NCBI GenBank assembly: GCA_041945105.1
Contig: CP145880.1
Span: 378,982 to 442,981, forward strand
DNA length: 64,000 nucleotides
Direction: 5' to 3'
Source: Candidatus Dasytiphilus stammeri
Lineage (GTDB): Bacteria > Pseudomonadota > Gammaproteobacteria > Enterobacterales > Enterobacteriaceae
Part shown: one piece after another, positions 44,655 to 46,708 of the stretch
How positions within the stretch are numbered: the stretch's first letter is position 1
How the letters are laid out: the number at the start of each line of letters is the position of its first letter
The notes under the pieces: generated by a model
What the model saw: only the letters and a program-made list of their open reading frames with translations
The model's database searches: none
What the model was told of the DNA's origin: nothing
Position numbers and translations under genes: made by a program

Positions 44655-44873
44655 ATGGCTAAAGAAGATAATATTGAGATGCAAGGTATTGTACTAGATA
44701 CTTTGCCAAATACTATGTTTCGAGTAGAACTAGAGAATGGACATGTAGTTACTGCACACATATCCGGTAAAATCAGAAAACATTATATTCGGATTTTAAC
44801 GGGTGATAAAGTAATAGTAGAACTTACTCCATATGACCTAAGCAAAGGACGTATTATTTTTCGGAGTCGTTAA
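44655..44873 (+). CDS. infA: Translation initiation factor IF-1
   Basis: 72 aa. [12 protein letters not shown]...[44 protein letters not shown] is near-identical to E. coli IF1. Confidence 0.95.
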
Positions 44874-46708
44874 TAAATTAAGCTTAATAAGTGTTTTTCA
44901 TAAGCCGCAAAATCTGTAATGGGTTTAGTTGCAACCCCTGAATTTATTGCCGCTTTTGCGACTGCTGGTGCAATTGTCAAAAGTAGACGGGGATCCAATG
45001 GTTTAGGTATTAAATATTCTGATCCAAAGATGAATTTTTCTTCCTCATTAGCATAGGCTAGATCTGCAAGAGCATGGACTACTGCTAGTTTCATGTCTTC
45101 ATTAATAGTTGTAGCTCCAACATCTAATGCACCACGAAAAATAAACGGAAAACAGAGAACATTATTAACCTGATTAGGATAATCAGACCTACCAGTACAA
45201 ATAATAGCGTCAGATCTTACAGCTTTCGCTAATGGAGGCAAAATTTCGGGTTCTGGATTAGCTAAAGCCAAAATTAATGGATTTTTAGCCATCCTTTTTA
45301 CCATAGCTTGAGTTAAAACCTTGGGTCTAGAACAACCGAGAAAAACATCGGCATCAGTTATTACTTCATCCAAGGTATATCTTCCTTCACTAGGATTAAT
45401 AGCATATACTACCTTGATAGGTGACATGGGTTTGTCTCTACCTTTATAAATTACACCCTTCGAATCACATACCACCAGATGGTGTTTTTTTATCCCCAAT
45501 GTTACTAATAAATTTAAACAAGCTATTGCTGAGGCTCCTGCTCCAGAAACTACAAGCTTAATATCAGACATCTTTTTATTAACTACACGTAAACCATTTA
45601 TAATAGCAGCAGTACAAATAATAGCTGTACCATGCTGATCATCATGAAAAACCGGAATTTTTATGCGTTCACGCAATGCTTTTTCAATATAAAAACATTC
45701 AGGTGCTTTGATATCCTCAAGGTTAATGCCTCCAAAAGTAGGCTCTAGAGATGCAATTATCCTAGTTAATTTTTCAGGATCATTTGATTCAGAGATTTCA
45801 AGATCAAAGGCATTAATTCCGGCCAATTTTTTAAAAAGTACTGCTTTACCTTCCATCACAGGTTTGGATGCTAATGGTCCCAGATCACCTAAACCAAGTA
45901 CTGCACTTCCATTAGAAATTACTGCTACTAAATTACCACGTCCTGTATATTTATATACTGCTATAGGATCTGCAAAGATTTCTAAACATGGAGCAGCTAC
46001 GCCAGGAGAATAAGCCAACGATAATTCATGCTGTGTAAATAACGGTTTAGTAGCAGTTACTTGTATTTTTCCAGGAACAGGAAATTGATGATAAATGAGT
46101 GCTTGATTTTTTAATTCATCGTCACTTATAATTTTATTTTTCAAAAGAATTTTTTTTCGAGTTTCTTCATCAATTTGTTTTCTAATATTAATTAAGAACG
46201 GTAAAATATTAGTTGTCTTCTGTCCATATGTAAGATTAAAGTAATAATCAAAATCTTCTGGATTAGCACCCTGATTATGTTGTATCAAGGTTTCAATTTT
46301 ATCAAAAGCTTTAACTATTTGTGCTTCTATCGATGAAGATTCTTCATATTCTTTCCACAATTGTAAAAAATTATTTCGGCTCTCTTTATCTAAAGTTGCC
46401 ATTAATTGTAATAGATCCTTATGTTCTTGATTTTGTTTATTTATCAAATCAATCTGGTTAATGGCTGGGATATCTCCATGGATAGCTTCTCCTAAATCAT
46501 GTATCACACATAACTTAAGTATTTTAGCAAAATCTACTATAGTTGGTAATTGATCTTCAAAAGCCATTGCCAATAGACAAAGTCGCCATGAATGTTCAGC
46601 TGTACTTTCTTTACGTCCCTTTGATGTATAGGAACTACGCAAAGTATCTTTTAACTTTTCGGCTTCGCGTATAAATTGTAATTTACCAGTCAAATTGGAA
46701 TTAAGCAT
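44870..46708 (-). CDS. Fusion protein. The N-terminal part is an HD-domain 5'-nucleotidase (YfbR/HDDC2-like, aa 1-190). The C-terminal part is the NADP-malic enzyme domain of MaeB (aa 196-611), with the PTA-like C-terminal domain absent.
   Basis: A single uninterrupted 612-aa frame with AGGAAA upstream. N-terminal part: [40 protein letters not shown] H..HD..D pattern. From [22 protein letters not shown].. onward, long identical runs match E. coli MaeB residues 2 to about 425 ([86 protein letters not shown]). There is no Met near the junction for separate initiation. Confidence 0.8.

Follow-up and report, generated by a model that had tools for sequence, protein, structure and literature searches.

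A predicted HD_3 phosphohydrolase–malic enzyme fusion at the end of a tubercidin-type operon in Candidatus Dasytiphilus stammeri

Candidatus Dasytiphilus stammeri, the symbiont of the beetle Dasytes aeratus, has a genome of 455,894 bp. In a 64,000-nucleotide stretch of it (the window; assembly GCA_041945105.1, contig CP145880.1, forward-strand positions 378,982 to 442,981), one open reading frame (ORF) on the minus strand, at window positions 44870..46708(-), encodes an HD_3-type phosphohydrolase followed directly by a malic enzyme (ME). We asked how two such different enzymes came to share one polypeptide, and whether their union couples two activities or records the shrinkage of the genome. 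The evidence indicates that the ORF encodes a real protein of ~70 kDa with two predicted enzymatic halves, and that two adjacent genes were joined by a deletion. We consider it rather probable that the fusion is a maintained bifunctional protein that arose as an adjacency-driven by-product of genome shrinkage and not as a purpose-built coupling.

The fusion frame and its two halves

The ORF runs for 612 codons and a stop without interruption, both in the program-made list of ORFs and on direct reading of the DNA, and its stop codon overlaps that of the convergent gene infA by 4 nt. It consists of an HD_3 half (residues 1-187, 46148..46708(-)), an 8-residue linker, LLKNKIIS (46124..46147(-)), and a malic enzyme without a PTA domain (residues 196-612, 44873..46123(-)). 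The first half was assigned by Pfam, by alignment with human HDDC2 (4dmb) and with 3kh1, by its motifs and by AF2 modelling, the linker by alignments of junction DNA, and the ME half by Pfam, NCBIfam and phmmer. Pfam placed HD_3 at residues 16-168 (E 7e-41, 140.3 bits versus a cutoff of 22.5), malic at residues 213-346 and Malic_M at residues 360-557. In phmmer searches against PDB, residues 196-612 aligned with residues 2-425 of E. coli MaeB (8jzo), and the C-terminus of the fusion coincides with the end of the crystallised ME-only construct 9m2i. The NCBIfam profile PRK12861 (NADP-malic enzyme) was matched by residues 197-612 over positions 5-426 of 764 (627 bits versus a cutoff of 1178 for the fusion protein), indicating that the PTA half is absent.

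Can the malic enzyme still be started on its own? The only in-frame start near the junction is TTG at codon 189, which has no Shine-Dalgarno sequence upstream, and the next ones are TTG at codon 231 and GTG/ATG at codons 284/285. The frame cannot be put down to a sequencing error: an identical fusion protein was present on 3 Logan contigs, and a homology search returned two fused orthologues, one of 612 aa with 93% identity and one of 622 aa with 79% identity, which stem from independent samples and other host species. The same search returned malic enzymes of 425-426 aa that lack the PTA domain and stand alone (75-85% identity), all of them from one sequencing project.

A preliminary description of this DNA, made from its letters, had proposed one unbroken 612-aa frame with HD_3 and malic domains, truncated exactly where the PTA domain of MaeB would begin and lacking a Met near the junction. 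All these points were borne out by the searches above: the N-terminal part clearly matches the HD_3 model, the ME half ends at the equivalent of MaeB residue 425, as does 9m2i, and the nearest ATG is codon 285. Its label 'YfbR/HDDC2-like' held in part. The HD half belongs to the HD_3/HDDC2 branch, but orthology with YfbR is ruled out by a score of 22.4 bits with the YfbR equivalog (NCBIfam NF003009), far below the cutoff of 122.

The HD half carries the metal ligands H39 (in AEHSW), H70-D71 (in HDLGE) and D136 (in FDKIE), and the H...HD...D metal residues are intact in every fused and split orthologue. It shares the HD_3 match and this site with the HD_3 5'-nucleotidases human HDDC2, yeast YGK1 (5yox) and E. 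coli YfbR; unlike them, it is fused to another enzyme. Its nearest homologues, from Paraburkholderia, Variovorax and Pseudomonas, are ~60% identical, stand alone and are uncharacterised; free-living HD_3 homologues, at ~190 aa, are similar to it in size. A Trp excludes ribonucleotides in YfbR and OxsA (PMC8177086); the position of this residue (W19 of YfbR, within RTGW in HDDC2) falls on a gap in the HD half. In the AF2 model the HD half reached a pLDDT of 85-96, and the model was confident only for this half and for a helix through the linker (residues 170-204). The ME half was modelled poorly (pLDDT 25-70, pTM 0.39), likely owing to a shallow alignment for an obligate swapped dimer.

The ME half keeps the motifs YSPGV, MEGK, LEDI, HDDQHGT, GAGASA, ANPEPE and NNVLCFP, and the catalytic Tyr, Lys, Glu-Asp and Asp are all present in its malic and Malic_M domains. 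It is 70-76% identical to MaeB proteins of Enterobacterales, with the best non-symbiont matches at 72-76%, and by its sequence it is a descendant of a native enterobacterial maeB. It shares ~70% identity with E. coli MaeB (8jzo, 9m2i; compare Bdellovibrio MaeB-ME, 6zn4) over residues 2-425, including the catalytic and NADP-binding motifs. Unlike MaeB, it has no PTA domain and bears 195 residues of HD half and linker on the N-terminal arm, a segment that the MaeB subunits swap across their dimer; furthermore, the D. aeratus and D. virens copies lack a surface loop of 9-10 residues. The C-terminal PTA-like, acetyl-CoA-sensing domain was not found in the ME half, and no PTA remnant was found between the fusion and infA. 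Isolated ME domains form active dimers on which acetyl-CoA has no effect (PMC7902834).

Among the proteins that the homology searches returned, the HD_3 + malic architecture was found only in Dasytiphilus symbionts. The preliminary description had named as a check whether the same fusion is common in Enterobacterales that have no deazapurine genes, and these searches found no such fusion. The search with the HD half alone missed the known fused proteins; as it recovers multi-domain targets incompletely, it is no proof of absence elsewhere. In addition, the fused Dasytiphilus protein is not a cluster representative, and other fusions could be hidden likewise. Malic-enzyme matches in several stretches or with N-terminal extensions were considered as further HD–ME fusions and rejected, as Pfam identified them as tandem malic enzymes or other fusions. 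In these small malic enzymes the ME part lies C-terminal to a cNMP-binding, EF-hand, glycerate kinase, EndoIII-like or receiver+ACT partner, or to a second ME, and they differ from the Dasytiphilus protein in that none of the best 150 representatives has an HD domain. Such natural N-terminal fusions indicate that the ME fold tolerates N-terminal partners.

Fused and split states and the anatomy of the junction

We compared the locus across the Dasytiphilus symbionts, which we name by their hosts. Wierz et al. 2024 reported 20 Dasytiphilus genomes of 437-601 kb and described the symbionts as tyrosine provisioners (PMC11191362). Our scan of reference genomes covered 15 named Dasytiphilus genomes with patterns too specific to reach beyond Dasytiphilus; a wider alignment was applied to the metagenome collection after the Dasytiphilus-specific pattern scan. 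Among the 16 genomes scored, the fused state was present in the symbionts of D. aeratus (the window), D. virens and Psilothrix viridicoerulea. In 12 other strains HD and ME are neighbouring but separate genes with a spacer of 94-270 nt. These split forms encode HD proteins of 187-197 aa and malic enzymes of 425-426 aa, at the same locus and in the same gene order as the fused form: the shared neighbourhood comprises gltX, nupC, a kinase/regulator, the six core genes of the operon, HD, ME, convergent infA, trxB and serS. Both genes are split and intact in D. niger, Danacea nigritarsis, Listrus sp. 02 and 06 and five strains of the Dasytastes clade. HD is interrupted in Listrus sp. 00 and 04, both genes are absent from Listrus sp. 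01, and ME is a pseudogene in D. alpigradus, with four frameshifting micro-duplications and a ~420-nt deletion. At this pseudogene (locus L019, about 11900-13100) the tandem micro-duplications measure 7, 5, 3, 5 and 4 nt; together with the deletion, they give a clear local view of the mutational spectrum in Dasytiphilus genomes.

The published orthogroup table gives HD as NA and maeB as present exactly in D. aeratus, D. plumbeus, D. virens and P. viridicoerulea (PMC11191362), so that D. plumbeus joins the fused set independently of our genome scoring. The same four genomes have lost peptidoglycan synthesis (PMC11191362). In every strain the ME open frame, 428-444 codons long and abutting infA, is PTA-less, which places the loss of the PTA domain before the diversification of the symbionts. 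By this comparison PTA loss is older than the fusion, and the fusion is a later deletion within one sub-clade. The preliminary description had told a different history, in which maeB lost its regulatory half and captured a nucleotidase domain. Neither the capture nor the order of events stands: two adjacent genes were joined by deletion, the PTA domain was already missing in the ancestor of all strains, and the separate maeB kept its own Shine-Dalgarno sequence and ATG.

What became of these translation signals? In the split strains the spacer ends in AAGGAA(N7-8)ATG and the ME begins MDDQLKK, while the fused strains have lost the stop codon of HD together with most of the spacer. In D. virens the linker reads CTT TTT CAA AAT AAA ATT ACA AAG and aligns codon by codon with the D. 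niger 5'-untranslated region (5'-UTR), TAT TTT CAA TAA GGA ATA ATA ATG; the linker is thus the former maeB 5'-UTR read in frame. The in-frame TAA of the UTR, the Shine-Dalgarno sequence AAGGAA and the ATG have been lost by mutation in all fused forms, the former ATG being AGT in the window (codon 195) and AAG in D. virens and P. viridicoerulea. This coordinated decay of translation signals is the strongest sequence evidence that the ME is now made only as part of the fusion. In the split-form spacers, promoter scans gave counts no higher than in shuffled controls, and terminator scans found none. The fusion is a clean, datable case of genome erosion creating a multi-domain protein: comparison with sister strains still reveals the split ancestor, the endpoints of the deletion, the UTR recruited as linker and the decay of the translation signals.

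The P. viridicoerulea junction differs in detail, as the last HD codon is kept, the linker has 18 nt versus 21 nt elsewhere, and there is an extra codon just downstream. This linker (L009, about 11790-11815; L009/L003) also holds an A10 homopolymer, AAGAAAAAAAAAATAATAAAG, and slippage on the A10 tract in replication or transcription could modulate the amount of full-length fusion in P. viridicoerulea.

Did the genes fuse once or twice? Neighbour-joining (NJ) trees gave 25% support for monophyly of the fused strains with 1509 columns; with 3999 columns, support was 22% for their monophyly versus 76% for a sister relationship between D. alpigradus and D. aeratus + D. virens. Maximum likelihood over all 15 topologies separated the one-event and two-event placements by a delta lnL of 1.5 (RELL 0.52 vs 0.43). 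Indels such as the 33-nt loop deletion are confined to D. aeratus + D. virens and thus uninformative on the number of events. A single event is the more parsimonious reading because the fused set coincides with the loss of peptidoglycan synthesis.

We then compared dN/dS of the two halves. In pairs of fused strains it was 0.33-0.46 for HD and 0.14-0.35 for ME (0.18-0.26 for trxB and serS in the same pairs), and in pairs of split strains 0.15-0.29 for HD and 0.09-0.31 for ME. All three fused lineages have retained every metal ligand and HDxxE of the HD half, and likewise all catalytic and cofactor motifs of the ME half. By these measures, both halves of the fusion are under purifying selection.

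Predicted roles and the reasons for the fusion

Next, we considered what the HD half might do. In tubercidin biosynthesis TubE ribosylates 7-carboxy-7-deazaguanine, TubF decarboxylates the product and TubD carries out an NADPH-dependent reductive deamination; PurA and PurB then aminate, and the Nudix protein TubG is the final phosphohydrolase (PMC6112128). The set of neighbouring genes supports the earlier proposal, which placed the fusion last in a 7-deazapurine operon. Pseudomonas mangiferae and Pseudomonas sp. RIT-PI-AD, whose UbiD-like proteins are the nearest non-symbiont members of the TubF-like subfamily, carry QueE-FolE-QueD-GMPR-PRT-UbiD-NUDIX, in the same order as the symbiont, and other TubF-type clusters carry a Nudix gene and/or a HAD phosphatase. 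No Nudix (TubG-type) gene was found in the Dasytiphilus cluster, and the HD_3 gene fills that slot. Because HD occupies the Nudix/TubG slot of the nearest free-living clusters, it is probably the terminal phosphohydrolase, and since the HD and Nudix folds are unrelated, the best reading is a non-orthologous replacement of TubG. TubG of Streptomyces tubercidicus and the Pseudomonas Nudix proteins thus share with HD the last position after the UbiD-like gene and the proposed final phosphohydrolysis; they differ in fold, and the role of HD is predicted.

A precedent for an HD enzyme finishing a nucleoside antibiotic is OxsA, the HD phosphohydrolase of oxetanocin A, which dephosphorylates a nucleoside-analogue antibiotic precursor (PMC8177086). 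The 'oxetanocin-like' PDB entry 1xx7 matches the HD half at E 2e-14, whereas OxsA itself is distant in sequence, stands alone, has a B12/radical-SAM partner and acts on another scaffold. Furthermore, Listrus is the one clade in which HD has decayed, and purA and purB have been lost there too. This co-loss, the OxsA precedent and the gap at the ribonucleotide-excluding Trp support the terminal role. The earlier idea that the fusion performs the final dephosphorylation thus gained support, chiefly from the place of HD in the Nudix slot.

As for the ME half, the published gene table lists no zwf, gnd, icd or sthA in any strain, and pntA only in the Danacea and Dasytastes clades, not in the Dasytes clade, while mdh, fumC and aroE are universal (PMC11191362). 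Given these absences, the ME of the Dasytes clade is probably the main NADPH source for the whole cell and not one specific to the cluster. D. alpigradus and Listrus sp. 01 have no recognisable NADPH-generating enzyme in that table, yet the NADPH-dependent AroE is universal (PMC11191362).

The comparison of strains shows the following history. The common ancestor of these symbionts had a seven-gene operon, QueE-FolE-QueD-GMPR-like-PRT-UbiD-like-HD, directly upstream of a native, already PTA-less maeB. In the lineage of D. aeratus, D. plumbeus, D. virens and P. viridicoerulea a deletion of roughly 70-90 nt removed the HD stop codon and most of the spacer, turning the last ~20 nt of the maeB 5'-UTR into an in-frame linker, and the in-frame TAA, the Shine-Dalgarno sequence and the ATG were then lost by mutation, leaving the ME to be translated only as the C-terminal part of the last gene of the operon. 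As the ME was still needed once the maeB translation signals were destroyed, only an in-frame deletion would have been viable. The HD half would release a tubercidin-like 7-deazapurine nucleoside from its 5'-phosphate, which is the job of TubG; the ME half, as an acetyl-CoA-insensitive NADP-malic enzyme, would convert malate to pyruvate, CO2 and NADPH, and this NADPH would serve AroE (in the tyrosine pathway), TrxB and the GMPR-like reductase. The fusion itself would most likely be a neutral or near-neutral outcome of deletion bias in an eroding genome. This adjacency-driven origin is suggested because no free-living cluster has an ME, and because strains that lost HD or ME kept the six core genes.

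Several points weigh against this reading. Both activities of the fused protein are predictions from sequence. The HD gene was found in no other TubF-type cluster, so that the pathway assignment of HD draws on its position and on one clade-level co-loss. D. alpigradus persists without ME and PntAB, so that ME as a source of NADPH is not strictly indispensable. The HD half has a somewhat higher dN/dS in fused than in split pairs and may be partly relaxed in the fused strains. Finally, two separate fusion events would make a purely neutral origin less likely.

Could the fusion instead have been selected, as the preliminary description supposed, to tie NADPH regeneration and expression level to the GMPR-like step and the final dephosphorylation? 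Reductive deamination of the TubD type consumes NADPH (PMC6112128), the fusion enforces 1:1 co-expression with the operon, and the Dasytes clade has no other canonical NADPH source. In addition, the P. viridicoerulea junction lies one codon from that of D. aeratus and D. virens, the likelihoods are compatible with two independent fusions, and a PyrS/PyrR-type pyruvate-responsive pair stands directly upstream of an operon whose last enzyme would yield pyruvate. The comparative data do not support such a coupling, since a malic enzyme occurs in 0 of the 19 non-symbiont TubF-type loci. Strains that lack ME (D. alpigradus, Listrus sp. 01) or HD (Listrus sp. 00, 01 and 04) have kept the core genes intact, and twelve strains have kept HD and ME apart. 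Moreover, with NADPH free to diffuse and no intermediate common to the two active sites, the fusion offers no obvious channelling. We therefore regard adaptive coupling as unlikely. A more specific form of it, in which the fusion arose twice (in Psilothrix and in D. aeratus/plumbeus/virens) as a pyruvate-feedback module tying redox supply to the production of the 7-deazapurine nucleoside, would put the only NADPH generator of the cell into an operon downstream of a truncated, soluble PyrS/PyrR pair, and appears improbable.

No likelier is the idea that the HD half is a mere passenger, its frame kept open only for the needed ME downstream while the phosphatase decays or is already lost. This would fit the elevated HD dN/dS of the fused pairs and the dispensability of HD in several Listrus strains, but that dN/dS is still well under 1, the metal ligands and HDxxE are intact in three fused lineages, and AF2 predicts the fold of the HD half with high confidence. 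That two genes were joined by an error of sequencing or assembly, or that the fusion is an inactive remnant, is effectively refuted: although the fused proteins are found only in Logan assemblies and GenBank apparently has no protein record for the fusion (serS is WWP00121 and the UbiD-like protein WWP00124, leaving slots only for trxB and infA), the same open frame recurs in independent assemblies from three to four host species, stop, spacer, Shine-Dalgarno sequence and ATG have been lost in a coordinated way, purifying selection and intact catalytic motifs mark both halves, and the true ME pseudogene, in D. alpigradus, looks quite different. The missing record suggests that PGAP flagged the fusion as a pseudogene. 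The public annotation is corrected accordingly at two points, as the authors' table has a plain maeB with HD missing and GenBank apparently has no protein.

The surrounding operon and neighbouring genes

The six core genes of the operon lie upstream of the fusion on the same strand, with gaps of at most 52 nt. Directly upstream, after a gap of 52 nt, is a TubF-like decarboxylase of the UbiD family (46761..47984(-)), followed by a purine-type, TubE-like phosphoribosyltransferase (47991..48467(-)) and a TubD-like protein of the IMPDH/GMP-reductase family (48460..49611(-)), both assigned by Pfam and NCBIfam. The likely start of the latter is the ATG at 49611, since its orthologues have 383 aa. 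Further upstream are QueD (6-carboxytetrahydropterin synthase, 49598..50128(-)), FolE (GTP cyclohydrolase I, GCH-I, 50138..50740(-)) and, as the first gene of the operon, a QueE-like radical-SAM enzyme (7-carboxy-7-deazaguanine synthase, 50757..51446(-)). On the other side, the convergent infA (44655..44873(+)) marks the end of the shortened maeB.

With a phosphoribosyltransferase, a UbiD-family decarboxylase and a GMP-reductase-like enzyme, the cluster fits in composition the family described in bioRxiv 10.64898/2026.04.15.718813; it has GCH-I, QueD and QueE and no QueC. Its UbiD-like protein belongs to a distinct TubF-like subfamily that includes Streptomyces members at ~31% identity. According to the published gene table, queC and queF are absent from the D. 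aeratus genome and from most strains, and ubiX is kept with no canonical ubiD listed (PMC11191362). These two patterns argue for a working pathway independent of queuosine. Each of the 16 Dasytiphilus genomes examined (437-601 kb) has an intact set of the six core genes. We infer activity, expression and product, for the cluster as for the fusion.

The main text of the tyrosine-provisioning paper does not mention deazapurines, tubercidin or malic enzyme, and its gene table has queD, queE and folE under folate, the UbiD-like and GMPR-like genes without a KO and the fused gene as maeB (PMC11191362). A literature search found no link between tubercidin and an endosymbiont. An intact tubercidin-type cluster in 16/16 genomes, undiscussed in that paper, may be the larger point of this locus: if the cluster makes a bioactive nucleoside, a nutritional symbiont may have a second, possibly defensive, role, and the fusion protein would be the last biosynthetic enzyme of the nucleoside pathway in the Dasytes clade.

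Near the operon Rfam found no riboswitch, only tRNAs. The pair directly upstream of the operon (51695-53566(-)) consists of an orthologue of PyrR (YpdB), 63% identical to E. coli PyrR, and a 375-aa homologue of PyrS (YpdA), which is 49% identical over residues 210-552 and has no membrane sensor domain. The PyrS-type kinase is missing in the Dasytastes and Listrus clades, and both kinase and regulator are missing in Danacea. Beyond the pair, the nucleoside:H+ symporter gene nupC is a pseudogene in the window (53803-54577, with at least 6 stops/frameshifts); the symbionts of D. virens, P. viridicoerulea, D. niger and the Dasytastes clade have an intact copy of 396-399 aa. A MatE-family transporter gene (38633-40024(+)) lies ~5 kb from the cluster and may be a candidate exporter; a MatE gene directly adjoins the TubF-type clusters of Pseudomonas and Melittangium.

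Synteny with E. coli K-12 is approximate, as pyrSR, nupC, gltX and maeB lie there within ~80 kb in a different order, and it gives a weak indication that maeB stands in its native place. Around gltX and the nupC remnant the window has four tRNA genes (53618-53690, 54603-54675 and 56168-56330), echoing the tRNA cluster adjacent to gltX in E. coli K-12.

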